A stretch of 64,000 nt of DNA from Botryllus schlosseri (Eukaryota), in the NCBI GenBank assembly GCA_051294905.1, contig CM119372.1:3474001-3538000 (forward strand), written 5' to 3'. Below are positions 520 to 56,600 of the stretch, piece after piece (the first letter of the stretch is position 1; each line of letters opens with the position of its first letter). The notes below the pieces were generated by a model. That model searched no databases and was not told the origin of the DNA. It was given only the letters and a program-made list of their open reading frames with translations. Both the position numbers and the translations under genes were made by a program.

Positions 520-665
520 CTATATACGATTTTTCGTATACAAAGTTCTATTCTCTACTATAGTTGCCGACAATTACCCCTGACGAGTGTCAGTCTGAAA
601 TATTCTGGTTTATTTCGATATGAATATATTATTCAATTGTATATTGAAGTACTCTACCTCCAAGA
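520..665 (+). mobile_element. Short Penelope pLTR-derived element with degenerate hammerhead motif
   Basis: Matches the PLE 3' end at 11885-12035 (ttctctacta..gttgccgacaattacccCTGACGAgtgtcagtctGAAAtattctggt..atattgaagtactctacctccaag). Confidence 0.8.
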
Positions 666-696
666 GTGAGGCGCGCGTACAGCAGCGACTGTTACA

Positions 697-1127: not shown

Positions 1128-1197
1128 TTGCTACACGATGCGCCTCGGCTAGAGAGAAATGCCCGTCTTTGACAACCATGTTTCCATTCTGCTCTAG

Positions 1198-2858: not shown

Positions 2859-3431
2859 TGATTACCATGCTCTGTAAAGTAAGTTCTGAGATCTGTGACA
2901 GGATTGTAATGACTTGACTCGTGATTTTTTTAGTGACTCGACTTGACTGGAGTAATTTTCTAAAATATGGAAAATGACTCGACTCGACTTGGGGAAATTT
3001 GTATAGCATATACTTACCTTTTTAATTGTCTGTGTGTGAATCACTACTTCTACTTCTACTTGAGTACCAACAATGACTACTTTGACCACCTCTGGACGAT
3101 ACAAGTATCCGTAATCCCAAAATCAACAATCACCCTAGATCTACCATAGGCACTAACCTCACCCTAAATATGACCATTGCTTCAACCCCAACCAAAAAAC
3201 ACCTTACCGTAAATCTAGCCCTAAATCGAACCCATACCACAACCCCAACCCCAAATCCTAAATGACACCCTGTGCGGTTTTATGTACTGTATAATTGCTT
3301 CTCTGACGATATCCTAATTTTCGCATATTTTTAATAGTGGCATCGTCGTCTCATTTTAGGCACTGCAAATATTCAAGAATTATATTCTGCATATCCTTCA
3401 TATTTTCGAATGCATAATGTATTCTTGTTGT

Positions 3432-3612
3432 ATATCAACAATCGTATCACTAAATATTTGGCGTTCGGTGATACGGTTGTTGATATACAATGTTCTTTCC
3501 AATTCTCTACTAGTTGCTGACGATTTCCCCTGACGAGTGTCAGCCGAAAATATTCGGGCTCATTTCAAAATGAATATATTATTCAATTATATATTGAAGT
3601 TCTGTACCTCCA
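3432..3612 (+). mobile_element. Short Penelope-derived element with inverted 5' piece and intact hammerhead core (3516-3559)
   Basis: tgtatatcaacaatcgtatcac is inverted against gtgatacggttgttgatataca, followed by gctgacgatttcccCTGACGAgtgtcagccGAAAatattcggg. Confidence 0.85.
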
Positions 3613-4611
3613 ATAGTATCTTGATATTTCCAATTCATTGGAACTTAATTAATCCGTTGCTCAATTCCAGGACTCCAGACCTCGGTCATTGAGCAAGAGT
3701 TACAAAGAAGACCGTTCTTGTGCCTTCGCGGACGCGAACAGGTTGCATTGATATAAAACCGTCCGTGAGCACGAACCGACGATCCCTGTTACCGAGCATA
3801 TAGATTTCTTCAAGATCTGGAAAGATGGATTTTTCGTCATAGGCCTATACTTTGTTTTGATGTCTCCACGATGCTTGTCAGTACATGCTGTTGTACATAT
3901 AATAGTATTATAGTATAGAAAAGTGGTAATGTCTCGGCTTATTTGATTTAATACACGGAGCCATATACGGTGTGATTCGTATAATTTGAGATGGTGTAAT
4001 GCAACAGGTGTATCGCAGTACGTCAATTTTCAGTACGAATCAATGGTTGCCATGGCATGTACAATGTACATATTGTACATGTACATTGCCATGGCTGTAT
4101 AAAAAGTTATTATGCAGGTTAGGTTAGGTTTGTGCAACGTGCAGACAGCAAAGAACAATTACGACCCTCCAAGAAGTGGCCTTTCGGAATCGTGTGCTCA
4201 AGACAGTGGCGTTCTTGAACCTTTACTAACTTGGGAAACCGGTACGCTAATCTGCAAGCCTCCGGCGAACCCGAAACTTTCGCCTTATCATAAAAAGAAA
4301 AATCTTCGACGTTGCACATCTAATACATTAGCCTACTATCGAATATATAAAACACTATAATTGCTTATCCTCCCTATTCACATTATTTTTGACATGTTTA
4401 TTCAATAACCTGAATGGCGACCCTGCCGAAATGTTTTCACACACTCAACTGTAATGTGGCCGCATTACATTTAGAACGCCTTTCCCTGTAACTGACCGAC
4501 CTGCAAACTTCAACAGGCTGTAATTAGGCTATGATTACTCTCCCCCTCGCTGTCCCTCTCCCTGCAGACTTCAACAGACTGTATCCTCCACCCCCCTCAC
4601 CATTTCTCTTT

Positions 4612-4613
<2 letters not shown>

Positions 4614-4657
<44 letters not shown>
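4614..4657. repeat. (CT)n microsatellite
   Basis: Perfect tc dinucleotide run. Confidence 0.95.
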
Positions 4658-4660
<3 letters not shown>

Positions 4661-4831
4661 CCCAAATACTGAAAGCAAGTCACGACCATTTGCTTTCACG
4701 CGCTTCAAATATCGTTATTCACAAAATTTTGAATTAATATGCTCACGAAACTGCCCCAAACACGATGATCACGCATGCCTCTTCCAGTCCAGCCTCGTTA
4801 TTTGCTATGATTATAATCGAATTCACTACAC

Positions 4832-7536: not shown

Positions 7537-8861
7537 AAGGGCACATCATCTAATACAGAGATAGGCAACCTTTTTGCTAATCACGGTCACATTTCAATTA
7601 CTTGGGTAGCCTAAGGCCGCATTCCAGGGCATAGCCGCATAGCAACCTATATTGCATCAAGTCTGCAGTTCACCAGCTATTACCAACAGCTACCCAGCGC
7701 ACTGAGCTTTAGGCTACTGCCAAATCTATGAAGTAATGAATGACTTACACGTGGGAATTGCTCTAAATCTTCAAAGAATATCAAAAATTTGTTCCAATGA
7801 AGTTGAGTGCGACTGCTGGAGTTTGAATTTGGCGAGCTTTCTTGAATACGAAATAAGTTTCTTCAACAATTGTCTTCTGAAAATGGTTGTGAAACAAATG
7901 TTTAGTCAGAATTCAGACAGACTTAGTTTATTTCTCGCGCCCCGCAGGTGGAGAGCCACTGATCTAATGTATTGAAGCAAAAGGTTCCTCATTTGAGGTG
8001 GCATGTGTGCCAAACAAATCCAGCAGTGGATGGAAACATCTCTGTGCTATGGCCCGAAAATTACATGAACAAGCCAACAGTTTCAACTCCTCTGTGGCGG
8101 ACTATGTGGTGTCACAGGTCACTATGTAAGTCGACTAATATCCCAAAATAGAACAGAGAATGCGGCGAATGAAATATTTCAATAATGAAATTAAAGTCAT
8201 CCTGGTGGTGTGCACAGTCGTAGATATTCACGGTAACAAATACTATGCAGTACTGTACCTTTTACGATGCGTATCCCATTCAGCATTCCTAGGAATCTTC
8301 AACGATCCACTTTCTTCAAGCACAACAAGCTTCGCTCCACCCGGGTTGGAATCCCGGTACGTTTAGCGAGACACCGATTCCATATTGGCGCTCCACCCTT
8401 TGCTCAAATCTCAATAATGGCCAGACGACGATACGACACTCGAACGATTTCAAAATGAGTGGTATTCATCCGCTGACATCCCACCGATAATATTTACTGG
8501 CCACGTTTGATTACGCCATGTTTGATTTAGGTCGTATTTTTTCATACATAAACATTTATCATTACATATAGTCCCTTTCTTTTCCATCTAATCTCGTATA
8601 AATTGACATCTATTCCACGTGATGTTCACTACTTACTGTACTTACTTAACCAGACGCTGCTTGTGATGTCACAGTTGTGCGTTGGTTGTTTACTACGAAA
8701 CTCTGAAAAAGCAGTAACGCGTAACCCTAACCTACTGTAACATGACAGACGCCATGTCCGCCATTAACAAATGGTCAACTGAGCATGCGGTGCTGATATT
8801 TCCAGTTTCCCGAACAATATTATACCTCCTAAACTTAAATAGTATATTCATATTGAAATGA

Positions 8862-8905
8862 ACCCGAATATTTTCGGCTGACACTCGTCAGGGGTAATCG
8901 TCAGC
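8862..8905 (-). ncRNA. Minimal type I hammerhead ribozyme in the inverted pLTR
   Basis: Minus strand reads gctgacgatt-accc-CTGACGA-g-tgtcagc-c-GAAA-atat-TC^gggt: conserved core, stem I accc/gggt, palindromic stem III AATATT. Confidence 0.9.
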
Positions 8906-9504
8906 AACTAGTAGAGAATTGGAAAGAACATTGTATATCAACAATCGTATCACAAAATATGACGTCACCAGCATGAAATTTCGAATGAGAGAGCGTTCAA
9001 TGTACTATTTTTAGGTGATACACGAACTCCTTTTGTTGACAGAGTTTTGGTTGGTGTATTTTGATAAAAGTTGATTCCAAGGCACACAAATGGAATTGTG
9101 AACGGCCTCGACCTACGATTCGAAATCGGTCGTCTCGATAATTATTCGCACAAATCGGATTATCCAACAGATGTTTGCCGATGGCAGAATTAATTGCCTT
9201 TGATCGATCAGCATCAATCTTAAGTGGATGAGTCAAGGGTGAGCTTTTCACATCGCGTGACGCACGTGTTCTGATAAATCTGGGGACATGTTGGTTTATG
9301 CGGTCCTGCAGACGTCTTGACGTTCTTCCCACGTAGCCACAATCACAGTGGCACCTATATTCGTACACTACATTACTTTGTTGAAGTGCAGGAAGCACGT
9401 CTTTGCGTGTTGAAGGGAGCAGTTGTGTTGTTGTAAAAATCACATTGGTTTTGACTGTATCGTAACATTTACCTACAGCAGAAATCAATTGTTTTTCAAA
9501 GCGG

Positions 9505-11844
9505 GTGGAAATGGGGCCAATCCGCCTCAATCCTAGAATGGAACAAGCGTTTTTATATGACGAGATTGGGAAGAATGAGAAGTTGGTTACTACTCTCCGC
9601 CGTGTTTGTCGATCGCTGCAGAAGGAAGTACGTTCAATCCTGTCGTTCTTCGACTTATTTCGCTTCTGCCGTTATTTGGCATCGATAGATACTATCAAAG
9701 AAAAGCAGAATTCAACAAGGAACGAACGTGGCATTAACCGCTTAGTTAGCCAGCGATTCGGTAGCAATGCAAGTCCAAGCAAGAAGAATATACTCAACTT
9801 ATCAGATCATAAGCTAAGCCCGACTGAAGAATTTGTTTTATCCCATGGGCTCAATTTTTGCCTGCCGCCTACCACTGTCAAGAATGAGGAGGTATTTGCG
9901 GAATTTGAAGTTCTCCTCGGCCAATTAAAACACCACGATTCTAAATCAGACGAGGGTATACCTGCTCTCAAAGCTCGGTTATCAGATTTGGCGCATTCGT
10001 ATTGTGGATGCCCGGTCGACAAGGCGGACTTCCTGATGAACAAAGAGTGTTTCCTAGCCATCAAAGCATTGCGATCCAACCCTGAAATCCACATCACCAA
10101 ACCAGACAAAGGATCCGGTGTTGTCATTCTGAACAAAGCTGACTACATTTCGAAAATGGAATCAATATTGCATGACAAAACCAAATTTATCTCGCTTGGT
10201 TCGGTTTCGGAATTTGATAATACACCTAAAATTGAAAGACGACTGACCAACCGTTTGCTGACATTGAAGAAAAACGGTGTCCTAACGGCAGAAACATACA
10301 GCGCCATCAGACCGACGGGATCGCAAAGACCACGCATGTACGGACTGCCAAAAACTCACAAAGACAATGTCCCAGTGAGACCTATACTTTCCATGATCGG
10401 GTCTGCTCACCATCAGCTGGCAAAATGGCTTATTGACATTTTGGAACCGGTTCGGGAATTGTACGGCACGGAATGTGTTCGCGATTCGTTCACGTTCGCT
10501 GGTGAAATACGAAACCTGGATTTGCCGAATCCAGACGTGTTTCTGAGCTCATTTGATATCTCTAGTCTTTTTACGAACGTTCCGCTGCATAAGACTATTG
10601 ATATTTGTGCCAACGCGCTGTACGGTGGTAAGTTACCGCCACCATCAATCCCGCGTAACGTCTTTGTTGAACTTTTACAAGCGGCAACTTGCTGCGTGGA
10701 ATTTAGCTTTAACGAGGTCATGTTTCGCCAAATAGACGGCTTAGCCATGGGAAGTCCCCTGGGACCTATTTTGGCCAATATTTTCGTAGGGTATTACGAG
10801 GGCGAGCTTCTGTCCCAGCGTGAGTCCGCCAAACCACTATTGTACCGCCGATATGTAGATGATACATTTGTCATTTTCAGGAATGAATTGGAGTGTGACC
10901 AATTTCTCATTCGCTTAAACTCGCTTCACCCGGCCTTGCAATTCACAATAGAAAAAGAACGCAATAACTCATTATCATTTCTACACGTATTAGTTGAAAA
11001 GCGCAATACCAACAAATTTGAAACGTCTGTTTTCAGAAAACCGACATTCACAGGCCAATACCTTCGCTGGAATTCATTTAGTCCTCGGCGCAGAAAAATT
11101 AACCTCATAGGCACACTCGTGCATAGAGCGTTGATGATATGTTCGGGTAACAAACTGAGTTTAGAACTTGACTACATCCGAAAAATCTTACTTGATAACG
11201 GTTACCCTGAACACGTCATCAGCCGCGGCATGGAGAGGAAATTAACGCAATTCAACGCAGAAAAACGAACAGAGCCCACCGCACGAACAATAAAAGATGT
11301 TTATATCCATCTACCTTGGATTGGCCCCATTTCCACCCGCTTTGAAAAACAATTGATTTCTGCTGTAGGTAAATGTTACGATACAGTCAAAACCAATGTG
11401 ATTTTTACAACAACACAACTGCTCCCTTCAACACGCAAAGACGTGCTTCCTGCACTTCAACAAAGTAATGTAGTGTACGAATATAGGTGCCACTGTGATT
11501 GTGGCTACGTGGGAAGAACGTCAAGACGTCTGCAGGACCGCATAAACCAACATGTCCCCAGATTTATCAGAACACGTGCGTCACGCGATGTGAAAAGCTC
11601 ACCCTTAACTCATCCACTTAAGATTGATGCTGATCGATCAAAGGCAATTAATTCTGCCATCGGCAAACATCTGTTGGATAATCCGATTTGTGCGAATAAT
11701 TATCGAGACGACCGATTTCGAATCGTAGGTCGAGGCCGTTCACAATTCCATTTGTGTGCCTTGGAATCAACTTTTATCAAAATACACCAACCAAAACTCT
11801 GTCAACAAAAGGAGTTCGTGTATCACCTAAAAATAGTACATTGA
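9505..11844 (+). CDS. Penelope-like reverse transcriptase with C-terminal GIY-YIG endonuclease (N-terminus truncated)
   Basis: PLE RT motifs KPDKGSGVV, MYGLPKTHK..PVRPI, SFDISSLFTNVP, QIDGLAMGSPLGPILANIF, RYVDD, FTIEKE; GIY-YIG NVVYEYRC-H-CDCGYVGRT..RINQH..SAIGKHL..LES. The first codons come from the inverted segment. Confidence 0.95.
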   Translation: MEMGPIRLNPRMEQAFLYDEIGKNEKLVTTLRRVCRSLQKEVRSILSFFDLFRFCRYLASIDTIKEKQNSTRNERGINRLVSQRFGSNASPSKKNILNLSDHKLSPTEEFVLSHGLNFCLPPTTVKNEEVFAEFEVLLGQLKHHDSKSDEGIPALKARLSDLAHSYCGCPVDKADFLMNKECFLAIKALRSNPEIHITKPDKGSGVVILNKADYISKMESILHDKTKFISLGSVSEFDNTPKIERRLTNRLLTLKKNGVLTAETYSAIRPTGSQRPRMYGLPKTHKDNVPVRPILSMIGSAHHQLAKWLIDILEPVRELYGTECVRDSFTFAGEIRNLDLPNPDVFLSSFDISSLFTNVPLHKTIDICANALYGGKLPPPSIPRNVFVELLQAATCCVEFSFNEVMFRQIDGLAMGSPLGPILANIFVGYYEGELLSQRESAKPLLYRRYVDDTFVIFRNELECDQFLIRLNSLHPALQFTIEKERNNSLSFLHVLVEKRNTNKFETSVFRKPTFTGQYLRWNSFSPRRRKINLIGTLVHRALMICSGNKLSLELDYIRKILLDNGYPEHVISRGMERKLTQFNAEKRTEPTARTIKDVYIHLPWIGPISTRFEKQLISAVGKCYDTVKTNVIFTTTQLLPSTRKDVLPALQQSNVVYEYRCHCDCGYVGRTSRRLQDRINQHVPRFIRTRASRDVKSSPLTHPLKIDADRSKAINSAIGKHLLDNPICANNYRDDRFRIVGRGRSQFHLCALESTFIKIHQPKLCQQKEFVYHLKIVH

Positions 11845-11935
11845 ACGCTCTCTCATTCGAAATTTCATGCTGGTGACGTCATATTTTGTGATACGATTGT
11901 TGATATACAATGTTCTTTCCAATTCTCTACTAGTT

Positions 11936-11979
11936 GCTGACGATTACCCCTGACGAGTGTCAGCCGAAAATACTCGGGT
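11936..11979 (+). ncRNA. Minimal type I hammerhead ribozyme in the 3' pLTR
   Basis: gctgacgatt-accc-CTGACGA-gtgtcagcc-GAAA-atac-TC^gggt; predicted cleavage after 11975. One substitution breaks the stem III palindrome. Confidence 0.85.
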
Positions 11980-12781
11980 TCATTTCAATATGAATATACT
12001 ATTTAATTGTATATTGAAGTTCTGTACCTCCAAGAAGACCTCCTAAACTGATATTTTAACTTATCAGTCTTATCCGTGGTAACTAACGAGACCGGCCGTA
12101 TAGCCACAGCCTTACAATATAATATAGTGGCTATGGTGTATACCACATTAGCTACGATTGTCAGTTGTTTCTTTTACCCTAGTATGTACTTTACTGAAAT
12201 TGGTACTAGGGCCAACAATTTCCGTATGATAGACCCCAGTCTCGCGAACGTGGTTGAATCAGGTCAAATCACCACAAAAATGATATCAGTAACATTCAGT
12301 TCCACGTATAACATTGACCGCAGCGATTTTCAAGCTAATCAATTTTGCCAATAGCCTGATAAACTGCAGGAACGAGTAACAGCCAGTAATTTTGCGAAGT
12401 AATTCTGGTAACTTGACTTTACAGCTAAATTAAGGTAATATTACATATCAAAATGTAAAATTACAAGATACTCACAGTTATTGGCTGCGACTGGTAATTC
12501 GTTGTAAAATTTACAGAGATTTCCCAGTAAATCTACCAGATTTTTTTCAGTGCAAAGCTACAGACAGGCAGATATATTATAGTTCTGTCTGTCGTTTACA
12601 CGTTATCCAACAATACATGGTCGCCATGGTGTGTGATTCAGGACGTGAGTCATTTCACGTCGGGTTATACCAGTGAGTCTGTGTGCTGTACAACATTTTC
12701 TTCCACATCAGTTACTGCAAAGGGAGCACATGCATAATAACATGGTGGCGCATTGACAATTGTGTATGCCTTCACCTGCAG

Positions 12782-22639: not shown

Positions 22640-24120
22640 CGCAGGCCTTGTTTTCTTGTCCCGTACATTTGATGTCTTCACTCAAAATGAGAAGTCTAAA
22701 TTATATGCCCAAATTAACCAAGACATCGACTGCCTTGCATTCCAGGGCCGAGCTGCTTCCAAGGCGGGAAATCGTAAGCCCAGGCGTGATTACGACGACT
22801 CGTCTTCCGAGGAAGATTTTCAAACGTTGGACGAAGACGATATGTATCACGTTTACCTCATTGAAAAACTAGACCATATCGTAAACGGCAGTTACAAATA
22901 CACGCGAATAGGTTCGACCGTCACAGATAGCATAGCGTAGGATAGAATATAAAGCCTCTTTGTAACCTGTTTGTGCAGACAAGCGACCTAGAGGAAGCAG
23001 AGAGTGACGAAGACGCAGAAGAAGAACTAGAAGCAGAAGAGAATAAACAAGACGAGCCTCGTACCAGCCGTGCGTCGACACCATCGTTGCTAACGAAAGC
23101 AGTATCGCAGCTGTCCGTGAGAGGCCGTTCAGCGGAGAGTACGATGCAAACGATGGACGACGGGTATTACGTATATTTGCATTCGAGCTTGTGGGGAATT
23201 CTGCGTGACACCAAGAGAACCAAGTCCATTCTGGAACAAACCTCTGAAGATTGATCGTATCAGACCAATAGTTTAAGGTTGACTGAATGTAAACGATGCT
23301 GTGAGCAAACCATATTTTTAATCACCGATCCGCAGTAATTTTGCAATCAATTTCTGGTAATAAAAGCACAAATGTGAGAGTCACCGACGATTACCACTGA
23401 CAAGTGTGAGCCGACAATCTTATCCAATTGTACAGTATATTGAAGTTCTGTAGTTGCCTCGGAGTCTCTTCTAACGAGAGTCTGTTCCATAATGACCAAT
23501 TTCGGAGTAGGTAAGCCTGTCTATACGCTAAAGCCATCATCCTCAACGCCAGGCGTGCTAACAGCGGCGGAAACTGGGGGGAAGTCATTCGTGGCTTTTC
23601 CGGATATGAGCGAAGAGAGGTCGAAAGAATCCACATCATTGCTCGCATTCGCCCTCACTATCGTAGGAAACGAAGCATGACAAGCTAGTGCTCTAAGCTC
23701 TTCAGTCAGTGTGCTCCAAAATAAGCAAGGGTTGCGTCAGTACGAAAATGGACGCACGGGTGAAGCGCTAACCTGTCACACTAGCTGGCATGCTTCCCAA
23801 ATAGGCCGCGATAATGGAAGGTGCTGATCTTCACAGAACATGTTTGGAGAGCATTGTGACGAAGTGTCTCTTCGAGTATTCAAATAAGTAACACGAATAT
23901 GGGTGAGAAACACCATTCTAATAGTATATCTGCCTTAATAGGACCCTCCGAGAACGTGACGCAAACAAAACAAAAGTGATTTTGTTGAACCTTTTTGTGG
24001 TTGTCGGTACTTTGCAGCTCAGCTGGCGTGATTGTCCCGCAGCAGCGTAATGATTTCGGACCATCCCCGCCTGCTATTTCGATTTGACGCTTTGGGTTTG
24101 CGTAGACACCTCCCCTGATG
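22640..24120 (+). pseudogene. Unidentified decayed intronless coding-like segment
   Basis: GC-richer block with successive protein-like + strand ORF pieces (22656-22940, 22973-23254, 23492-23680) broken by stops and frameshifts; acidic tracts. Confidence 0.4.
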
Positions 24121-24142
24121 CACTAACTATCCAGTACTGCTT

Positions 24143-24527: not shown

Positions 24528-25236
24528 CAGTGCTTCTCAACCTTTTTGTCCTTGCGGACCCCTTTTGTACTGTCACGGTCCCCCGCGAACCCCCTCAAGT
24601 TTTCATTCAAAATTTGCTCAATTATCGTGCAACCGTCATCGGTCTCGTGCAAATATTAACTGTAGGCTTGTGAGAAACACTCACAAAATTACTTTTCGTG
24701 AAAGTAACATCATATTATATGTAGAAATTGGGTAGAGTTTTATTGTTTCGAAGCGAATTTTGCAGCGCGCGCTTCTTGCAGGTACAGTTCGAACTTCAAT
24801 ATACAATTGAATAGTATATTCATATTGAAATGAACCGAATATTTTTGGCCGACCAGCGTGGTGACATCATATTTTGTGATACGATTGTTGATGATCGATG
24901 TTCTTTCCCATTCTCTACTAGTTGCTGACGATTACCCCTGACGAGTGTCAGCCGAAAATATTCGGGTACATTTCAATATGAATATTGGCCTACTATTCAA
25001 TTGTATATTGAAGTTCTGTACCTCCAAGAAGCTCTTCAAATCTCTGTATCAATACGCTATTGGCAATAAAAATGACTTTTATCTCATACGGCCATTCTAG
25101 TGATGAGTCCTGACGTTTTACCAATTATGAAGCGACATTGTCAGATGTTTTCTCTAATCAAAAATTAACTTATCAATCATTTTGCAAAAAAGGTTTCGTG
25201 GACCACCTAAAAATGCCTCGCGGACGAGAACTGCTG
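24528..25236. mobile_element. hAT (Charlie-like) MITE
   Basis: TIRs cagtgcttctc / gagaactgctg; perfect TSD ccttaaag (24520-24527, 25237-25244). Confidence 0.85.
24770..25038 (+). mobile_element. Short Penelope-derived element with inverted arms and intact hammerhead (24924-24967)
   Basis: An inverted pLTR tail (~24772-24853) followed by a forward pLTR with gctgacgattacccCTGACGAgtgtcagccGAAAatattcgggt. Confidence 0.85.
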
Positions 25237-25325
25237 CCTTAAAGCAAGGGTCAAGAAGCAGAAAACTTGGATAACTTCAGAATTCCTTCTGGTTATCAAA
25301 TTTTGTGAAATGTTTCTATCTAATG

Positions 25326-32600: not shown

Positions 32601-35600
32601 GCCACGCCCCCGGTCAGGGTTGTTAGGGTTGCATTAGGGTTGTTGAAAAATATTTTTTTCAAATTATACTTGAATAGTATATTCATATTGTAATGATCCC
32701 AAATATTTTCGGCCGACACTCGTCAGGGGTAATCGTCAGCAACTAGTAGAGAATTGGAAAGAACATCGTATATCAACAATCGTAACACAAAATATGACGT
32801 CACCAGCAGGAAATGTCGAATACGAGAACGTTCAATGTACTATTTTTAGATGATACATGAACTCTTTTTGTTGACACAGCCTAGGCTGGTGTATTTTGAT
32901 AAAAGTCGACTCCAAGGCACACAAATAAAACTGAGCGACCCTTTCCAAGTATGCGAAATCTGTCGTCTCGATAATTTTTTGCACATGCGGGATTATCCAA
33001 CAAGCATAGGCGCCGAACGCTAATTTTGCTTAGGCATGCGAGTTCGATGACGTCACAAAGGAAGACGTCATGATCCGACGGAATTGATAATTAGGGATAA
33101 TACAGCATCAATTCATGAGGGTTAAGTGCCTGCATAAATGCCGATTATGCAATATCTGCGTGTTAACAAACTTGCGCGTATGATAAGCTTGTCGACGAGT
33201 CCGGAAGTGCTGTCAATTAGCGAGTCCCGATCGCTAGCGAACAATTAAATACGTCGCTTATCAACGCATATTATGTAACCTCAGCGACGATTTGCGCAAG
33301 GCAAAATGTCAGAGTTGTTATGGAATCTGTTTTATAATGGCACCAATTTCAGGTTGTTCAAACCTTTCCCGTCTTTTACAACTCAAGCCTTGACAGTTGA
33401 CACACATCTTCCGATAGTTATGTTTAGGTATTAGCAGGATTCACTTACGCATGCACGGCGCACTCACAATCGCACATGTCTGCGGACATTCGATGCCATT
33501 CAGGTCAGCGATGTCGCTCTTCAATTACAATCGCTAACCAACAAACACCTAACGGCATTGTCACCAAGCCATCGAAAGATTGGAGCTAACGCATGCTAGG
33601 CTCGAGAGATGGGAGCCAACGCATGCTCAGCTCTAGACGCGATAGTTGGCCAGCGATGATATCTTTCGTACCAGGCCTGTTGCAGATGCGATTGTGCAGG
33701 CAAGCGATAATATCGTGTGCGCCAATGCAGATGCGAATGTGCAGGAAGCGATGGCACCGGGCCTACTGCTGATGTGATTGTTCATCATGCTCAAGCGAGT
33801 GAAACTAGGCTTGTAGGAGACGCGATAAAGCAGGCAAGCGTCCCAAGCGATGATTGCCGAACGCACGGCAATCAATGACACAATTTCGCGATCATCTCAG
33901 CGGGAGATCGCGTCGCGTTACATTGTGCACAGACAAATCTTGTTAATTGGCAACGCGCTTGTAGCTAATTGGCCGCGCGCAACGGGTTACCTCGCTCACA
34001 TAAGCGGTAGCAGGTAATGTCGTAAACGGAAATACATTGCGATTCGTTCTAAATAACACAATCGGGGATTATGCCGATTCATGCCAAACCGAATTCTAGG
34101 CATGCCGCATGCCTAAAAAAATGTCTAGGCATGCCTGGCATGCCTTGCATGCCCAGGTTCGGCGCCTATGCCAACAAGTGTTTGCCGATTGCAGAATTTA
34201 TGGCCTGCGATTGGCAAACACTTGTTGCCAACGTTTCTTAGACAAATTAACAACACCACGGGGTAGCCGGTGAAATTTTAATGGAGAGGTATCTTTTTTT
34301 AATAAACGCAAAATTTTTCAGCTCTCAATAGCTTTTCTTATAATGGTTGTAATTCATTCAATTAATTGGTGCGCAACATTTTATTTTAGCCACCGTGATA
34401 ATTTCATCAATTAGCCGATAAAATATGAAGTAAAACGTTGTTTTTGAACAATCTGCCAATCCATCCATCAATGACAGTGGTACAAAGGGGAGGGAATTAT
34501 ATCTGTGGTTGTTCTCATATTACACACTGGGTCAGTTTCAAGAGACAGGGGTGTAGCTAATGGACAGGGCAAGAGTGGGGAGATGATGAAAGGTTTATTC
34601 GATTACAGTGTTTCATTTTTGCCAAGTTCAATTTATGACACAGGTCAACACACGTTCTTCGGCAGATAAACTAAGAGGGCTCTGTGGGGCACCGATTCCA
34701 AATATGGCTTGTTTTTTTTTCAAATTGACTCCAGTTTTGGAGACAAGATAATTCGAGTCGCTATTTGGACTAAAATCTCATATTAGAGACTTGCCCGGTA
34801 GATAAAGAAAACTGTTAGTACAACTTCCAATGGTTAATCCAGCAATACAATTACGAAATCACAATTCCTTTTATGAGATCACTAGACGGGTAGAAATTGA
34901 CTGTATTTATGTCCATTTGACCGTGGGAATTGGAGTTTATCTGTAAACCCCGTCACACACCATTCGAAATCGTGAACGCATATATATGCGGCACGCAATT
35001 CCTCTCCCACCGCAAAAACACACCGCAAAGACACAGCAAAGTCACAAACCTGTTTATAATCGGGCACATCTTCGCTGCTGTCCATCCTCAGCTGATGAAT
35101 CCCGGCCGTGATGTCGTTAAAATTGAGCGTCTCTTCCATTTCGTCGTTACCGGACCGGTCCGACAACACAAAGTCAGCCTCGCTACTCCTGCCGGGGCAA
35201 AACGAGACTCGTTTTTACCGCAAAACACCAAACGCGACTACAAGACTTTTACCTAGGAGACATGATGTCAGCCATACCCGACATGCTGCCATGGGGCGAT
35301 ACCACCTGCCCGGCTGGGGCCATCCCGACACGCGCAGTGACCCGACCGGATGACGGAGTAGTGGGTGACTAAAATAGATGGGACTGCTGCATGAGATTCA
35401 AACGTGGTTACTAGGGGTGTTCCAAAATGACTTTTTTCCTAAAATTGTACTGGCTACTTGATAAAATTATTAGGTTACCTAATTCAAGCCTACACACCAA
35501 ATTTGGTTCAATTCCAGCCAGTAGCCGCATTGCTACAGAAGAAAGTTTCTATTTATTATATAGAAATAAATTAACAAAAATTTCAAAATTTTCTGTTGAC

Positions 35601-41600: not shown

Positions 41601-44600
41601 GGTGGCCATCGATTTTTCAAAATTTTCAAAATGTAAAAATGGCGTTAGAAACCCCTGCTTTACACACAAGTCAGCAAGGTCGTGTGGAATATGTTACACT
41701 TCAATTAGAAAGATGATTAGAAATACTTAATACAGACATAACAAAGAAACAAAAAACGATGAAAAAAGATCACATAGCACGCCGAACGATCGCAGCAAAA
41801 AAATGAGATGCGTAGGGCATTGACACACACAAAACTGGCTTAGGTTAGATTTTTCGATCTGGACGTGGTAAGAATGGAGACGCCGACATTCACACCGAAC
41901 TCACCTCCAGGACTCGAGTCCCGGCTGCTAACTTGCGAAGAGGCCACGCGACTACAATTGCGCGACGCTGGCTCACTACGCAGGCCGCGCTTACCCGATC
42001 TGGCAGCTTGCGTTAAAGATAGATTTTATGATATCATCGCACAGATTACGAGCGGTTAGCTCATTGAAAAGACAATGTCAAGCATGCAATGACGTAGTAT
42101 CGGGGTATTTTTGGCGTCAGAATTGGACAACTAGAAAATTTCCAGCTTTTCCAAATTAGGAATTACTGAAGTCGCAAGAAGTTGGAAAAATTAAGTTCCG
42201 TTCATATCAAATCATACTATACAGTTTTCCTGTAGCATTTTCAGGAAAAACCAGGAATTAAACGATAAAACATTCAACAAATTTCGCTTTAATTGGTCCA
42301 ATTAAGCAACTAGAATCATCTAGTTGTCCAAGTCTGGTTCATGGTTGGTATGATTTCAGTCGGATAGGCGTCATTACAGTGTGGCATGCTATTTTCATGA
42401 TCATTCGATTATATCGGTAGCGATGACAGATGTACAAGTGTGTATGCTACCGGATACTTGTGGCTAGGATGCAATGATGATGATGATGATGTCGTGTTAT
42501 GTCTACAAAGATTGAATTTACGCTGTCTTGGAAAATACTAATAATACAATCGACTGAAATTTCAAACCGTAATCGATTTCATGACGATTCGTGGCTTAAA
42601 ATGTTATTTATCACAGAGTGACATATCACAACTTATTATACGACAAATGTGTAATCTATGAAGCCTCTCTTTGTGAGATTCCGACCAATACCGACAATTA
42701 ACAGAGTCTCGATATAGTAATTGATAACTAGTTTAACCTGCGGCGGAAGATTACTGGTCTCGGTCGACCCTAATACCAAATCAGTTCTTCAAAATTATAC
42801 TTTACATGCGCTTTGTAACCACAAAGAGTTATTCGACTGATACAAAACAAAAACTCTGTAATCAGTCATCGATTACAGAGATTGAAAGTAGAAAAATTTT
42901 GTTACTGGTCTAGGAATATTTACAGTCGTAGTAGGATATGTTATATCAGACGGGAAAGCATCTGAAAAGTTCGAACAGGTTACTTTGGAGACGTACTGGA
43001 AGTCAAGTAGATGTATCTTCAGAGAGAGAGAGAGAGACAATCCTTAGATCAGGATGCATTTGAAGAGGATTTTGGAGGCACACAGCTTAAATACACAGTT
43101 GAATAATACCGTATATTCATTCATATTACGATAGGAATAGGACGTCGTATAGCCATAGCCGGACGCTCCACCATTAGCCTACGCAATCTTTTCGGCAGAC
43201 CCTCGTCAGGTCAGCAACTAGTAGAGATTTCAAAAGAAATCGAGTTACAGTTGTTAATATGCAATGTTCTTCTCAATTCTCTACTAGTTGCTGACGATTA
43301 GCTCAAACGAGTCTAGCCGAAAATACTTGGGATTATTTCGATACGAATATATTATTCAATTGAATACATCATTCAACTGTAGATGAAGATAATGAAAAAA
43401 CAGAAATCAAAGATATTCAAGAGGCAACGTATAAGCGGTCGCATGCAGATTAACGTTCAAACCGCCACCGGCCATGCGCCACATCGAAAGGCCTCAATCT
43501 TACCTCTATACCGATGGGGGCTAGCGTCCCGACTACCGGAAGGCGACCCGACACGAGACCCTGCCCGCGAACCCACCCTGGACCCGGTCCTAGAACCAGA
43601 CCGGGACGCAGAGACGGGTATACGCGATCGCCGACTATTCATCGGCGACGACGGCGGGGTTCTCATGGGCACCTTCGGGGTACGCTGAGCCCCGTTTGAG
43701 TAAATACCCATTGAGCTGGCACTGGTACGTCTCGGTAGGTCAAATTCTACAAGCCGAACAAAAACCAGATTTCAAAGAAGATCAGTACGAGTGTACTAAA
43801 GATTTGAAGCATGACATTCAGTACAGATGACTAGGGCTTGGCTTAATAGTTCGAGTACCTGAGTATTATATTCTTCGATTATCAATAATTACGAATATTA
43901 CGATGTCATAACATTATGGATAATGATGAATGTTCAAATATGTACCTTTTATGCGACCATGAATAATATAATGCCAGTTCCACATCACATTAAATAAAAT
44001 TTGGTATTTTGTCTACCATACCTATTCTATTCTATTGCACTTAGTGACAACGCTGTGGGTTGGTCACAACTCGCGTAAAAGGTGCATATTTCAACTTTCC
44101 AAAATCGTTCATAATGTGGCGATGTCATGAGTGATACTCGAAGTCTAAGAATCACTCAGGCACGCGATTTAGCTCCGCCCCGCTAATGACGAATCAGATT
44201 CTACGAGATGCGAGTACAAGGCTACATGATTTCCGAAATGAAACTTTTCAAAAAGCGTTGCGATAAAAATTCAACAGAGATGCCTTCACCTTCTTTGTCG
44301 TCCATAGAATACGTTGAGGAAGTCCTCGACTTTCTGCCGTAGGCCCCGGTCGGCGTACGCGGGGCGTTGTAGTAGCGAGATCGCGAATTGGGAGAATTCG
44401 ATCGGCTACCGGCTGATCAAAATCAAACAGATGAAATCTCAACTCTCGCGGCATGTTACATGAAGCGACAGTTATGACCAACTAGTTCAGTGGCTCTTAA
44501 CCGGGTTTCACAGTGCAAGTCTCAGGGGTGTGCTGGAGGTGAAGACAAACACCCTACTCCCACTGATTTGCGGTGAATATGCAGTGTGCTGTTTTTGTTT

Positions 44601-47600: not shown

Positions 47601-50600
47601 CTCACAATGAGTAGACAATGGGCCATCTACGACAGTATGCCAATAAAGTAGGCTACAAGGTGTAATATGTCAACAGCACCAAGTCACCAACGGAATGCAG
47701 TGTGCAAAATAATTTGGAATCTGTGGACAATTTTGACAATTGTTTGACCTAACACTACAATTTTGACAAAATTTGCCTTTTTTTAAAACATCAAAAAATA
47801 ATCGCCCTGCTGAGGATCTCTAGTTGAGAGCGATAAAGATATGTTGAGCTTGATGACGGGGCGGTGAGATGAGAGTTTGGGAACCACCGATTTGAATGTT
47901 ACAAGACAAATTTTACAATGCGAATGAAACATAGCACACGACACAAATGACTACCGTTCAAGTATATTATATGATACATAGATTCTTGAAGACAAAAATG
48001 ACGAGGGTTTAATAGATGGTGACTTCGGTTATTGTTTGCAACGGAGACAGAATGACATATGAACACTGATCCGACCTATATCAGCGGTGTGGTATAGATT
48101 CTCGTGGGACTTGGCGGAAGTCCTTCCCATATTCGAGAGGCGCTTAGCACGCGTTCTACGGTCTGAATAGGAATATGCGGCATCCGATGGATATGCGAGA
48201 CTTGAAAATGAAGCTTAAACTTGACCAGTCGTCCAAAATTAGTTACTCAATTTTTCACTAGCAGAAAATTATCAAGCCCAGAGAATAGTCTTCGTAGAAT
48301 GCCAAAATTTCAACGTCTGACCCTGGTGCAGTGCGGTCAAATTAAAATCAGACTGTTGAAGATTTGCTACAATCATGTCAAAGCAAACTAACAATCAGGC
48401 GGCTTTATCGAAGTTCAACCGATCGTTTGAATGATATGATGCAGTAAAATTCCTCAACCAATGGAATTCGATATCGTATGACAATAAATAAATGTTTATG
48501 TAGCCAATATGATAAATATAGAGCACTTTTCAGACATCACCGATTTTTCAAGCTTACGAAGACAAAATCTCTTCCCATATTAAACCAATAAATCACCGCA
48601 TGTTAACCGGGTATTTTTCTCAATTCAACCTCATTGTATCTCACCGACTGAGTTGAAACCCATCGCCTTTTGAGCCGATCTTCGGGCAGCCTCGGGGTCG
48701 ATATCCGATCTGGACCTCGCAAAATTGTTCCTCGCCGTACGGCCCGCGACCGTGAATCTCGACGCTGTTGAAAAGGGTAACGATTGTCAATAGGTAGGGA
48801 AGGAAATCGTGACAGGTCGACGTACCTCCGTCTGCCGGTACACGCTGTGCATTGTTGGGCAAGAGCGATCTTCTTGGCGGTCGCCTGGTGAAATTAATCG
48901 TTATTAGGGAAGTTTTTGCAACATTTTTACAACTTCCGGCAGATTCCTAGATACTCAAAATCTATGCGCTATGAAGTTTTAAGCTGTTTGTAGGAATTTT
49001 ATAGTGCAACTTTAGTCTATTTTTAACGCAAAATATTGCGCAAAATGTAAAGGTGTGATAACAAAAACATGCTATAAACTATTCCTAGTATAGTACTATC
49101 CTCTTTGATTTGCATAACAAAGAGCTATATGATAGATTAGCTGCAAAATTAATATTATCTATGACGCAATGGCCTGTAAGCTAGAAGTACAAGATATTGA
49201 ATATATCCAATGAATATTCACTCGGCTTGTACTCGAGTCATTGTGCATGACTCGAACCAAGTCATATGACTCAAGCCTAGGACGGCCAAGGCAGACATTT
49301 CATTGTAACTCCCAAGAATAGTAAAGTGACCACATGATCGATATTTCATCTACCAGTCCTGATACTTGGAAAATATGGCCAGAAACTTTTAGGACTCAGG
49401 AAAATTACGATATTATGAACGCGAGTCATTCTATATCACTCGAGAAGAGGGTTGAACTCAAAACTGAACAGTGAAAAAAATGACTTGGACTCCACTAGGG
49501 AGTAACAACACTATGAATCGGACTCGACCCTCTACTAACTGATTTGGACTCGTACTTGACTCGGCGGTGAATTGAAAATGACTCGAGGAAAAACTATAAA
49601 AGAGAGATTGACTTGTGACTCGGAAGACTTGGTTACAGCTGTGTTCGACATACTTGCTGGCGATGGACGATTTCGCAGCTGACGATTTGGGAATGCTCTC
49701 GGTCGACGAGGACGCCGTGAGTTGGCCTTGTATCATCTTCTGCTGCGCTGCCGTTAAATCATTGTACAACTGCTCGGCTTCGACAGGAAAATGGGATCGT
49801 AAGCCCCACCAGCATCTGAAACAAGTCAAGTCGAAATTGCTAACTGATCTTGTTAACAGCACATCGTCAACGATGGTGGACAATATATGGGTATATGAGT
49901 GAAGAAAAAACACTTGCAGGTACGGAACTTCAACATACAATTAAATATTATATTCATATTGAAATAAAGCAAAATATTTTTGGCTGACACTCGCCAGAGG
50001 TAATCGTCAGCATCTAGTAGAGAATTGAAAATAACATTCTGTATCAACCGTCGTGATCGTGATGTCACATTAGGTGAGACGACTGCTGACATAAATAATG
50101 ACAAGTTCAATTCACTACTACTCTGGAGAAAATACTCGTAATAAACCCGAACATTTTCGGTTGACACTCTTCAGGGGTAATCGTCAGCAACTAGTAGAGA
50201 ATTGGAAAGGATCTGTCAGCAAGAATATTAGTGGCTACTAAATTTAAGAAAAGCAGCCTAAATTTGGCATATACCCTTGTCATTAAATGATATCATATTT
50301 ACTATTTCACTACATCGTGAAGGTTACATCCTCAAATCAAATGCAAGGAATCCGTAAGATTGATAATAATCGATCAACGATGCTCGATAATATGACAAAG
50401 AGTGTTTCCAATTCAATACTACGGAGAAGTGACACAAAGTAAACTTCGGTAAATGGACAAAACCTATTCGGATACAAAGAATTCCCGGCGCTGCACGTCA
50501 TGTTGGGTTTATCTTTAGCAAACATTGTACTGTGGTACACGCTCTATTATCGGATCCATACGATTTCCTATAAAGTAGCCTAATATCGATAAGGACATCG

Positions 50601-53600
50601 ATTGCACGAATGTGCTAAAATTTAGCTTGAACATTCTAATACCGCGATCACAATGGGGATAGCCTTTTCATGCACAAAAGAAATCCGAGGTAAATATTGG
50701 TACAATAGTAACCAGCCGATTAATGAAAATAAGCTTTCAGGATTGAAATTTTTCCAGCATTCACTTGCCATATGGGCTTGTGTGATTGGACCATATACAC
50801 ATTGGATTTTAGTCAATTGTACAACACGTTTTAATATTTGTGGTGAACGGCATAGAAATGAGGCTTTTTTCAAGAGAACTGTGGTTCGCATATACGAAAC
50901 AACAGCAGACGTTACGCTACTTTCGATTGGTTGCCTGTAACCCCTAAATTTCGGTAGTCAATGACTAAAAAAAGGTCATCACTTTATCCCAATCTCTGTA
51001 TCGTCGCTGTGGAATCAGAGTAGCTTATGTCCATTTCTCTAATTACAAGATCCATTTTGCAAATTATGAGAAAATCAAGTTTTTGCGGCATTGTCATTTT
51101 CATGCATTTCGGCCATATCTGAGCCATGGCTATCACGTTGTTTCAAAGTTAACAATGGCCTTCCACAGCGTCACAGGTATGATATAGGCTATTTGATGCC
51201 TATACAGGCAGCTATCTAACGACTAAAAAAGGTCGTCAGCTGACGGTATCATTACCAGAGAGCAATCTAGATTTGCAGTTGCATGATGATGCATTTCAGC
51301 AATGCCCTTTTCTAGACCTCCTAAAACTAGTCCTTGGACCCCAGTTTACGAACCCCTGAGCTGGGCAGATCTAGCACTAGACGCGAGCCCCTAATGTCTA
51401 TCTCCTGCTCATAACTCGAGGCAAACAAAAAAATTACAAAATTACAGACACCTAATGACTTACTTCCTCGCTTCCGATCTGGCCTCCGCATCTGCGTCGC
51501 TGATGCCCCTCTTAACAGCATCCAACACTGAGCCAAATTGCCTGTTGAAAAAAGCATATAAAGGTATTAAGATGGACAACAGAATCCAGGGTTATAATGA
51601 CTCCGGTCGCAATTTTTCGTTGACTCGACTCGAGTCATTTTCAATTGCACATGACTCAACCAAGTCATATGACTCGGGACATTCTATATTACTTGATTTA
51701 ATTCTCGTGCATCAGTACCGATACCTGAGGTATAGGCGCTTAAACCCTATTTGATCCGTTTGAATAAACATGTTCGGAGTGAGAAAAATCAGTATATTCT
51801 GAATGCGACGCCTCAAAGCACCCAAGAGTTTCACAGAAGTGAGTTCAGCCCGATTTGATCTCAATAATCAACAGCGAACTCAATGACTCGGACTAGAGTC
51901 TCAACAATATGACTTGGACTTGATTCAGTGAAGTGAAAATGACTCGACTTAACTAGAGTCAAAACTATATAAGTTAAGATTGACTTGTGACAAGGAACCT
52001 TGTGACTCAGTTTAACTAAATTGATACAAAAATTACGCAGACACGCCAATTTCTCTGATTTGTTCAACTGACGTTTCTAGTAAATTGATATAATGGCAGT
52101 TGAAATCCCGGTACGCCTACTTCAAAACTGAGCTTACTTTTCGATTACAGGCGTCGTCCATTCTTGTAGGAGCAGATTTAGAAAACCGTACGTTCGCTTC
52201 CGTACCGCGGTTGATTTTGATGCGCAATTCCCGGTTATAATCGGAATTAATCGCGGCGCGTGCGTGTTCTGCAAATAATACAACATCATGACCTTGACAA
52301 CAGAACAGGATAAAAAAGGGTTGACGACAATGAAACTCTACATTAAAACTCAATAATTTGAGAACAAGAAAATATAATCTGTACTTACTACCGATGCACA
52401 CGTTCAAAAAATTGTAATTTCAACAACCTTGAATCACTACCCATGGTTTCGTGATGATAATGATATTCATTGAAAATTTTCCGCCGAAATGAGTTAAGAC
52501 TGATGTCAAAATGTATTATCACCTTATGGTAATTCAACATCAATATCTGTACCATAGACTGTTTTTATCTGCACTGGAATTGAGATGATGTTGACACTAC
52601 CATCTGGAGCCGGGCAAGATCCTTAGCATGGACAGAGAACGCAATGAAATTGGGATGGTCAAAGAAAGAGCAAATTATCTTAATGCTGTCTATAACTGCA
52701 TCATTTTCTTTATGGTTGCATAAAATATTCATATTTGAACTCTTTAAATTATCCATACTGTTATGATGTCATAACGAGTCGTACTCCACTACTCGGTGTA
52801 AGTCAAAGTCTAATACCTGAGTACTAGTTGTGACCCCATCTATTCAAATGTTCATTGAATTGTGGCTGTTACAGCATGATCAGGTTTCTAATTCAAGTGT
52901 TTCAGCTTTGTAACCAATTTCAAAGATCTCCATCTCTTACAAATCAGCTTTTATTTGTAACGTCTCACCTCTCATCTTATCTATTCTTATCTCGTCCCCA
53001 AAACCCAAACTCTAAGCACCAATCCATGGGCGTCACCAGCACGAAAAAGACGTGACATTTTAAAACTGAAACCAGATCAAAAACCTTTTTTTCGGCTATG
53101 CATCAGTCAAATCTGTCCCTTTGATGGCAGGCATTATGTTGATAACAAATTTTAAGGGAGTGTTACAGTACATATGACAGAGAGCCTTGCTGACATTGAA
53201 AACTACAGTTACCACAAGAGCCTGTTAAAATAAAAACTATTTCTTCGCAATATCACAGACAGCAACTCGGCATCGATTCAACGTTGATTCCATGCAATAC
53301 TAACTCATTAAATCAATTGCGTGCACACTCAAACGCAATTGCGACCAACATAAAACACAGGTTGGCGGATACCTATACTCACCCTTATTATAATACGGAT
53401 TGTTGTCACCCCAGACGTGGCCATGATCTTTACGGAATTCGGCACGAGGTTAAATAAAGGTGGAAAGACAACTTCTGCCGTGTGATCAAACCGAGTTTTC
53501 AACACAGTCGTCAAATGCCTGCAATAACGGAAGTTTTTAATCGCGAGTACGGCCGAGCACAAGATTCTGGTACTCGAATCTGAATTAAGCATTAATTCTA

Positions 53601-56600
53601 ACGATCCGAGTCGAATAGTGAGAGATGATTCTTTCGAATACTGAAAATTATGCGATTCTTGCTACAGAGCAATCAAAATAGTAGTTGCTACAGTATTTTC
53701 TACTGCAAAGGTTTGAAACCTCAATTGGTCGTACCACAGCATATGAAATGCAGTACAGTAGAAAGCTACTGTACTTAATGGAAATTTCTGTGAAGTCATG
53801 GTCAGAAAGTACAATGAAATGAAGATGGTCATTAAAATACCAAATAATCTTTAACATGATGTAGAGATAGCAATATTTTCTTTGTGGTAGCTTAAACGGT
53901 ACATATTTCAACTTTCCACATCATTCATTAACCGCAAGCACATATCTTCAACTTGAAACGGATTGGCCACCGTTACTTCTTGACAAGCAAAGTTTACATT
54001 CGAAATTGAAATCAATCAGCGACTGGCGTCACTGCAAATCAATGCGATCAATTTATATTCACAATTCCAGATACCAGGTCCACGTTTTTATATCAAAAAG
54101 CCTAGCCATCATAGTAGCAACGAGACACACCGATACCTTGCAAAGGAGAATCAATAGACATTTATAATTTATTTACGATCACAGCTGAGCACTGATATCA
54201 GACAAGGGACCTCTCTCTAAACGAGATGAAGAGATTTTAGGTTAGTTTTTATAGCGCTATTGTGTGTAGGTTGAACCGACACAATACTAACCCCGAGATA
54301 AAACTATTCCAGGCATTTTGACTCTCGAACACATATATACATTACGAGAGGCACTTACGCGAGTGTGAGGCACGTTTCCCGTACAACTTGAGATCTCAAA
54401 TCTCTTGTGTTTAACACGAGAGCAGGCTCTAACGTTCTCAGATGATGCGCAAAAGACTCGTGCTCCGTGCCTCCGTTGGCGATGACCGCACGCAATGTTC
54501 TCAACTACAAAAAATAGGATTTAAAATAGATAAATACATGCCGACATGATTGTTATTGTCAAAATTTGTTGCCATACAAACACATCAAAACATATCCGGC
54601 ATTCAAACGCCAACTACAAATATAAAAAGATAGAAAATACAGTGCCCAATATAACGAATTACTCATATTAATGATATTGAAGAGCTTTTTGGAAGTATAG
54701 AACTTTAATACACAATTGCATAGTAGTTATTCCTATTTAAATGAATCAGAATTTTTTCAGCTGACACTCGTCAGCGGTAATCGTCAGCAAACTAGTAGAG
54801 AATTGAAAATATACAATGTTCTTTTCAATCTCCACTAGTTGCTGACGATTACCACTGACGAGTGTCAGTCGAAAATATTCGGGTTCATTTCAACATGAAT
54901 ACCGTACACTATTCAATTGTACACTGATATTGAATAAGCTGTTTCCTGTAAAATAGGGTATTTTGATCTCTAAATGTAAAATTGCAAGTACCTCATTCTT
55001 GCATTTTTGGCCTAAGGAACTCAAGAAATTCAGGCCCAACAACAGGTCCAAACAAGTTCGACATTAGTAAATAGTAACCATTCTAGCACCATAATCGCAT
55101 ATGCCAAGTGTACATCGTTGTAATAATTTTAATCATTATATTATACGATATCATTACGGAATTGAAAATTTACAATCAATCAACCAGACAACAGTTTACA
55201 ACTCTTAATCTATATCGACTATTGCATGTAATCAGAAAATGAGATTAAATTTTAATCAAATATACTTAGGCTAAATCTAATCTCAAAGTTCACTCGATAG
55301 TATTAAGGAAGCCTAGTCAAGAATGTGAGACGAATGATGAGGTCCAGCAAAGAAAAACATATGTTTTGCTGCTACACAGCATAAGAAATGGACTATTTAT
55401 TTCATAGCAATACCGCCGCACTACCTGAACCTAGTTAAAAACTACCTGAACCTAGTTAAAAACTATTATTACCAAAGCATTCTCACGGAACTTATGAAAT
55501 ATGAAAATATGAGGCTATTGGAAACATTTTGAGATTGTGGTAGATACTGATATTCCAGTGATCTTCAATATTGGCTTAGCCCTACTTGTGATCAGTCAAT
55601 CCTCAAGTAGGTTAGGAGGATGGGGTGTTCCTTGGGTCATTAGATAGTACCCACAAGCCACAGATCAGCAAGCTTGACAATCGATCATATTGCTATCTTT
55701 TCCATACTTGTACACGCTATCAGTCTAGTTAGTTATTAATGATGAACTAACTAATGGTTTTTTGAGTAGTTCTAGTTGCAGATTCGAAAAAGTGACTAGT
55801 TCATTTATATTGAAAATTTTCGAAAATAATTTAGAACTGGAAAAAAAAATTTTGGCTTGAATCGCCATACCGTGTTCTGTTGTGTGATGCTAGCTCAAAG
55901 TTATCACTACTGACAGTAGCGTGACCAGTAGGGTTGTTCAGATTTGAAAAATTGTCAGGAAACTTCGACCATTGTGATCCAAATGATGGTTTAGTACATA
56001 AAAACACTTTTATGAGCAAGTTTGGTCATCTTCATCGTGATCTTCCTTTACCTCAAAGCCCCCAAAGATCCAGAGGTCATTTCTCCTTATTACAGCTGAT
56101 ACACCAGAGTGTTTACGTTGACGTAGTGCTCTGTAGTGTTGACCGTGTAACCAGTTTGTAGCTTTTGTGATGTTATCAGTTGAAAACGGTTGTGCAGAAA
56201 TAAGGAATTGCAAGGAAGTATATTTGTTTTAAAAATTGTACCTAAATGTTGTCTTATAAATATCAGATGTATCTCCGTTTTCCTGTTCAAAACCCGTCTA
56301 TCGTGTTCATGGGAAGCATTTATTAGTTGCACGGGTGACACTGGTTTGTTGTGGATCGTACTTCGAAGCAGCGCCGTTGGATTGCAAAGTCGTGAACAAA
56401 TGTAGAGATTTGCAGCTACTTTTTAAGCAGTAAATGTATTGAAAGGTGTATGATATGTAATGTCAGTAATATTTACCTCAATTTTAGTTTATCTGTAACA
56501 TAACGAGTAATTCAATTTGATGGTAGAGTGCAATTTAGTAGAAGAAGAATGCCTGACACAAAGCGGAGAAAGGTAGTGCCGGATCCACCAAGAACAAGAT

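Follow-up and report, generated by a model that had tools for sequence, protein, structure and literature searches.

A stretch of 64,000 nucleotides (nt) of the Botryllus schlosseri genome (assembly GCA_051294905.1, contig CM119372.1, positions 3,474,001 to 3,538,000; hereafter the window) contains a long Penelope-like element (PLE) with a hammerhead ribozyme in its 3' module, together with a swarm of short repeats that carry the same module. What are these short repeats? A preliminary description of the window offered two options, extreme 5' truncation products of the PLE or a non-autonomous family resembling a retrozyme or a short interspersed element (SINE). Our analysis supports the former and lends no support to the latter. 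The short repeats are in all likelihood ordinary cut-short (dead-on-arrival) insertions of one autonomous PLE and not a separate retrozyme or SINE family. Signed positions below are counted from the first C of the hammerhead core CTGACGA (position 0; window 11950 in the long element), and loci sampled elsewhere bear L numbers.

The source element was found as a complete 2692-bp unit in partial tandem at L081. Copies end at their 3' side in two classes, near +54 to +62 (untailed) and near +87 to +98 (tailed), where a single 3' end had been described before. The open frame of 848 amino acids in L081 starts with an AUG at +40, and the 'tail' is therefore the start of the open reading frame (ORF). 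The L081 protein matches the reverse transcriptase (RT) model RVT_1 (E=8e-9) and contains a VVY-RCHC-YVG pattern, in which two cysteines lie between the endonuclease motifs. The Pfam GIY-YIG model gave no match in this protein, but matched in the L114 family (E=0.0066) and in the homologue P0012 (4e-6). A single ORF with RT and GIY-YIG domains, partial tandem or inverted pseudo-long terminal repeats (pseudo-LTRs), a tail and target duplications are all present, as in endonuclease-bearing (EN+) PLEs. No cysteine motif was observed in the RT-endonuclease linker of the L081 ORF; placement in the Penelope/Poseidon clade would call for the lack of an extra zinc-finger motif there and for a matching position on an RT tree. 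Judged from its sequence, the source element thus follows the canonical PLE plan (PMC8557442, PMC3846280; here and below, cited works are represented by the available parts of their texts). The long element of the window, which had been regarded as the parent of the swarm, is itself 5'-truncated and lacks 176 bp at the start of the unit. At L081 (G000:C1:13417900-13427850), two partial-tandem PLE units form a palindrome of 9 kb under a single 13-bp duplication; one ORF is open and the other is broken by a 1.5-kb insert. Loci L114, L143, L162 and L166 represent at least three further PLE families of this genome with the same hammerhead form; they share a TGACGTCA or TTACGTCA motif at -76 to -67, and one AAGCTT-type pattern has 737 matches.

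Loci were sampled as the 30 best BLAST matches, 60 of the first exact-core matches (all from one contig), 40 loci fetched by the motif at +28 to +55, and 560 kb of unselected sequence. The 30 BLAST loci, 9 loci borne by a miniature inverted-repeat transposable element (MITE) and 3 duplicated loci were excluded, leaving 167 arms outside the window. The 5' ends spread continuously from -2604 to +50, and 83 of the 167 arms reach the ORF. Comparison of 47 short arms with 81 ORF-bearing arms revealed no diagnostic site after correction (best p=0.005 of 27 tests). On a tree of these 128 arms, 44 of the 47 short arms had an ORF-bearing arm among their nearest neighbours, and the short label took 31 changes versus 28.7 when shuffled, indicating that short copies are not clustered. 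Short arms are also older, differing from the majority by 5.9% versus 3.0%. Continuous 5' ends and no diagnostic site surviving correction are the very pattern that the preliminary description had assigned to simple dead-on-arrival truncations. Neither the fixed 5' end nor the lineage with its own diagnostic changes that characterizes a SINE-like family was found among these arms; what remains is a broad 5' hot zone.

The structure of the insertions points in the same direction. Target duplications of 10-16 bp were found in 13 of 14 young pairs of arms, as against 2% of 300 mismatched controls (threshold, at least 8 bp). Among complete head-to-head pairs, exactly one arm carried the tail in 38 of 40 cases (p=7e-10) and in 11 of 11 cases of a second set, 49 of 51 in total; 13 pairs of the first set and 3 of the second had an incomplete end and were not counted. 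The exceptions are the window locus at 24771 and, in L081, the inner junction, although the outer ends of that locus conform. Three pairs from two other families are likewise one-tailed (by eye). The longer arm was untailed in 20 pairs and tailed in 18. Fold-back on the first cDNA could yield only one of these classes, and two priming events on RNA are therefore needed. Thus, the one-tail rule, with either arm the longer, bears on how inverted PLE insertions arise and speaks against self-priming on the first cDNA. An antisense template has also been proposed for self-priming (PMC3846280), which may still operate in some forms. At the joint, 1-6 bases were common to both arms in 12 of 18 young pairs. 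Both arms matched at a subfamily site in 34 of 35 pairs, no junction recurred among the 38 one-tailed pairs, and no hidden tiny inverted arm was found in 42 single arms examined.

From these data we propose how the swarm may have arisen. Each short copy would be a separate insertion, made by an autonomous PLE copying its own RNA. The endonuclease would cut both target strands 12-13 nt apart, as the length of the duplications suggests. Reverse transcription would begin shortly after the ORF start, at either of two sites separated by about 35 nt, as suggested by the two 3' end classes, which match the two RT start sites shown in vitro for Anolis Poseidon (PMC11167929). Early stops would be usual, and the hammerhead, 55-95 nt from the start sites, would lie in the part copied most often; the ribozyme of the short copies would then be a by-product passenger. 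Both cut ends may prime, one from the near site and the other from the far site, and the two cDNAs may then be joined head to head via 0-6 shared bases or a short insert. Coupling of the two priming events could be brought about by a protein dimer.

Could the copies instead have been multiplied passively inside other repeats or duplications? One junction together with both flanks is common to 9 of the 40 loci fetched by the +28 to +55 motif, and 172 exact copies of it exist in the genome. We take its host to be a hAT/Charlie-like MITE; this element is 1.3-1.5 kb long, its inverted ends start with CAGTGGTTCTCAACC, and it shows an 8-bp duplication (clear by pattern in 2 of 7 loci). A few local duplications were also found (L018/L020, L201/L202/L206, L203/L205). 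These copies are a minority, however; the recurrent junction occurs at none of the loci of the window, and most of the copies sampled lie between unique flanks with a 12-13 bp duplication of their own. Passive spread therefore stands as a minor route, but is very unlikely, and in effect refuted, as a general account. The recurrent junction was also considered as a PLE-mobilised family and ruled out, because both flanks are shared and belong to the hAT-like element. Separately, it was observed that this non-autonomous hAT-like element carries a PLE fragment with a cut hammerhead core (L237-L242, L140; e.g., G000:C1:4191300-4194300).

The dead-on-arrival reading must also be weighed against a non-LTR retrozyme family that spreads via small circular RNAs excised by tandem hammerheads. 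A type I hammerhead with a palindromic helix III suits dimers, an origin of retrozymes from pseudo-LTRs has been proposed (10.64898/2026.07.22.740005), and same-strand pairs do occur, two in L056 (135 and 212 bp) and one in the window (177 bp). Retrozymes are, however, recognized by tandem units with at least two consecutive complete hammerheads, and such units were found neither in the window, which contains no tandem array of the module, nor among the 100 exact cores listed. Neighbours less than 5 kb apart among these 100 cores were head-to-head in 11 cases (70-2893 bp), tail-to-tail in none and same-strand in 4 (212, 2558, 2692 and 4267 bp, only one below 1 kb). The tandem junction of L056 is single in the genome, and the hammerhead belongs to the minimal PLE type, whereas described retrozymes have the canonical one (PMC7229834). 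The transcript of an inverted pair would contain one sense hammerhead and its antisense, and would therefore not allow excision of a monomer. No RNA dataset was listed among those that contain the module. Assembled contigs of four runs, which are not recorded as RNA, cover the module with many different joints, none of them dominant among the 15 of 58 listed; they were not used as evidence. Taken together, spread as a retrozyme is extremely improbable.

Several points weigh against simple truncation. About 1 Mb of the 495 Mb genome was sampled, with a bias to young copies and to one contig, and a rare independent family could escape such a sample. The arm tree is weakly resolved (101 columns; 62 of 87 inner branches open), a clear duplication was found in only 5 of 13 young single arms, and the pair at 24771..25039, with two tails, is the one clear exception to the one-tail rule in the window. 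Furthermore, 29 of the 167 outside arms start at -65 to -42, versus 10 and 11 in equal flanking bins (p=3e-4), and such starts were found in 12 of 40 old versus 6 of 73 young arms (p=0.006); plain random truncation predicts none of this. It had been stated that most repeats of the window begin near the same region. This overstates the case, as only 6 of 17 window arms start at -63 to -42, although the zone is enriched outside the window too.

The hot zone might betray a hidden short class of solo pseudo-LTR copies with a preferred 5' end, for which the PLE RT would have copied either a non-autonomous element of greater age or a short transcript with its start near -65 to -42. This would fit the presence of the zone outside the window and its greater strength in old copies. 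The TGACGTCA or TTACGTCA motif of the four families lies just upstream of the zone, and promoters of PLEs are located in the pseudo-LTR (PMC2377424). On the other hand, the 29 ends occupy 13 different positions with unrelated flanks, the short copies form no clade and have no diagnostic site, and the zone is AT-rich, so that microhomology with AT-rich targets or alignment drop-off in old copies may explain it (seen for the window arm at 50054). In addition, a related family from another sample has a TATA box at -48, which would place the start near -18 and not near -60. A hidden short class is thus unlikely, and the zone could reflect microhomology in AT-rich sequence, pausing of the RT, alignment drop-off or a short template of greater age. 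An excess of 5' ends at the ribozyme cut (+26) was not found, with 2 of 184 arms starting at +20 to +30; the exact-core sample is biased against such arms. In a related PLE from a metagenome (L243, L244), CCAAT lies at -71, TATATAAA at -48 and the AUG 3 nt past the predicted cut; this layout suggests that the ribozyme is at the very start of the transcript.

If the short copies are truncated PLE insertions, what does the ribozyme do in the full element? The sequence has the core CUGANGA, GAAA and UH, stem I, G10.1-C11.1 and a palindromic helix III of a minimal type I hammerhead. Read in this way, it has a stem I of 4-7 bp, AATATT or AAGCTT as helix III, and a single G-C pair as helix II, which closes seven bases. 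Six of these seven bases pair with a leader at the fixed position -14 to -9. Families of this genome show the leader/loop pairs GCTGAC/GTCAGC, ACTAAC/GTTAGT and ACTGGC/GCCAGT; in two metagenome loci (51-53% protein identity) the pair is TCTGAC/GTCAGA. Across 10 distinct rows, which represent four families, 96.7% of the knot is paired and 3 of its 6 pairs show two-sided changes, whereas slid partners are 19-41% paired; for the whole fold, 87.5% of cells are paired, with two-sided changes in 8 of 16 pairs. Because these rows are related to one another and also served to draw the structure, shuffles of these data are not probabilities. In a pseudoknot, one base can bridge the deep groove of a 6-bp helix, and the seventh loop base, which is free and variable, fits this. 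The minimum-energy fold is an inactive hairpin, as computed by a program unable to form pseudoknots. Covariation suggests that in the full element the leader pseudoknot would substitute for helix II, and that a dimeric hammerhead probably cleaves 14 nt upstream of the AUG. A first CTGACGA at -13 was examined as a second core and ruled out; it has neither stem I nor stem II and is the pseudoknot leader. In L021, L176, L177 and L146, a 13-bp deletion between two CTGA motifs removes the leader or stem I, likely by slippage on the leader/core repeat.

These results can be combined into one reading. The ribozyme would be an undescribed form of hammerhead, in which a one-pair helix II and a 6-bp leader pseudoknot free the core from the inactive hairpin, and priming would be strictly coupled, with one target strand per RT start site, so that head-to-head pairs record a dimeric enzyme and not fold-back. 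This joint reading is tentative, and we would lean against its holding in full. A literature search found no paper on a one-pair-helix form in PLEs or on a counted one-tail rule in the texts available, and published alignments of PLE hammerheads may still hold the form. If the reading is true, about 20,000 genomic copies make both the knotted form and coupled priming directly testable. The covarying pseudoknot might also account for any weak in vitro cleavage by bare minimal PLE hammerheads, as leaderless constructs would be without helix II.

How abundant is the module? The genome contains 4,870 exact 24-mer matches, and an intact-core pattern covering several families has 8,197 matches versus 5 in a control. 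Core-spanning arms numbered 19 in forty 10-kb stretches taken at fixed intervals (400 kb), 9 in 160 kb flanking the window and 14 in the window itself. The density in the window, 219 arms/Mb, is thus 4.6-fold that of the random sample, 47.5/Mb. The genome is estimated to contain about 23,500 arms (95% range 14,000-37,000). The very large count that had been expected from the window was therefore right in kind, but scaling from the window alone gives 108,000 and overshoots. Counts of 2,000-9,000 single motifs per genome have been published for animals and ascribed to truncated PLEs (PMC4209133).

Within the window, 19 pieces were matched by an nhmmer profile versus none in a reversed 400-kb control. 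When the window was compared with itself and with the long element, the 3' module of the latter was located at all eight loci that the preliminary description had listed, and a decayed copy was added at 23379-23468. In total, 14 arms at 10 loci span the core, including both arms of the long element and the decayed copy. Every conserved core base is kept in 8 of the 14, although stem I, the palindrome and the leader are preserved as well in only 2-3. An Rfam scan gave no hammerhead match among the window arms; minimal forms fall outside the Rfam models. Other details of that description need revision. Not all derivatives are non-coding, as the arm at 32658-33002 carries part of the ORF. Inverted two-arm geometry was confirmed at 24771-25039, 26812-26945, 43060-43366 and 54677-54927, but 3428-3617 has only an inverted stub. 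The supposed tandem pair at 49911-50222 is a composite, in which two arms on the same strand, 177 bp apart, enclose an inverted stub.

Table 1. PLE-derived features of the window (positions in the window; signed positions relative to the hammerhead core)
Feature	Position	Strand	Details
Old single arm	524..665	+	-59..+85; damaged core
Arm with inverted stub	3428..3617		plus arm from -62 to tail, intact core; 30-bp inverted stub
Young two-armed PLE insertion, 5'-truncated	8835..12037		untailed arm -632..+56 minus; tailed arm -2428..+87 plus; 12-bp target duplication
ORF for RT and C-terminal GIY-YIG-type endonuclease	9523..11844	+	without about the first 75 of 848 codons
Minimal type I hammerhead	11936..11982	+	leader 11936-11941 pairs with 11959-11964 (putative pseudoknot); core 11950-11956; helix II with G11957-C11965 as its only pair; cut predicted after 11975; in this copy one change disrupts the palindrome
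ORF start codon and first codons	11990..12037	+	'tail' between the two 3' end classes, 12007-12037
Decayed remnant, absent from the first list	23379..23468	+	
Inverted pair, both arms tailed	24771..25039		minus arm +9..+88; plus arm -79..+97 with intact hammerhead, core at 24938
Inverted pair	26812..26945		untailed minus arm -22..+61; tailed plus arm from +45; 10-bp duplication
Single arm	32658..33002	-	-278..+68; includes ORF end (last ~170 bp)
Old inverted pair	43060..43366		tailed minus arm interrupted; plus arm -53..+63; both cores damaged
Composite	49911..50222	-	tailed arm -57..+84; inverted stub; second same-strand arm -35..+34
Old inverted pair	54677..54927		tailed minus arm -43..+95; untailed plus arm -47..+67; 10-bp duplication

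Other repeats were also observed in the window. Large near-perfect palindromic repeats, fold-back or MITE-like, lie at 14912-15586, 35410-36065, 30619-31109 and 6565-7536, the last of which contains TTAGGG-like arrays facing one another. A 700-bp repeat is present in three copies of about 80% identity (18480-19165, 27587-28281 and 31419-32119), and two frames at 19856-20729 resemble the end of a long interspersed element (LINE)-type RT, as judged by eye.

The swarm is what known PLEs lead one to expect, and it should be annotated as PLE debris and not as a new ribozyme parasite. The insertion architecture has been described before (PMC8557442, PMC3846280, PMC11167929). Penelope/Poseidon-type EN+ PLEs likewise have a single ORF for RT with a GIY-YIG-type endonuclease at the C terminus, partial tandems, frequent 5' truncation, an adjacent inverted truncated copy, a tail of 30-40 bp at one end, an ORF start inside the pseudo-LTR and duplications of 9-13 bp (PMC8557442, PMC3846280). 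There the tail is described as optional or often at one end, whereas here it was counted, in 49 of 51 pairs, with either arm the longer. In Anolis carolinensis Poseidon, two RT start sites bounding the tail and cutting and extension of both target strands were shown in vitro, a dimer was predicted, and the hammerhead adjoins the ORF start (PMC11167929). In Botryllus the start sites lie about 15-20 and 50-58 nt into the ORF and the hammerhead is wholly upstream of the AUG; coupling of site to strand was not found in the available text of that study.

The ribozyme, too, has relatives. Metazoan non-LTR retrozymes are also short, non-coding and pseudo-LTR-related with a type I hammerhead, but are defined by tandem units and circular RNA, whereas the copies here are single or head-to-head with variable ends (PMC7229834; 10.64898/2026.07.22.740005). 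Minimal PLE hammerheads (PMC4209133) resemble the present one in being type I, with a palindromic vestigial helix III and conserved G10.1-C11.1, and in occurring as thousands of mostly single motifs from truncated PLEs, with opposite-strand pairs 100-700 bp apart. Their helix II has 6-8 bp and the usual tertiary contact is missing, whereas here a one-pair helix II is accompanied by a predicted leader knot. Pseudoknots between stems I and II occur in about 40% of hammerheads, and in one active example from a metagenome a stem II of one pair is combined with a 6-bp pseudoknot (PMC3088659). That example is of type II, whereas the Botryllus form would combine the knot with a type I, dimer-type helix III within a retroelement.

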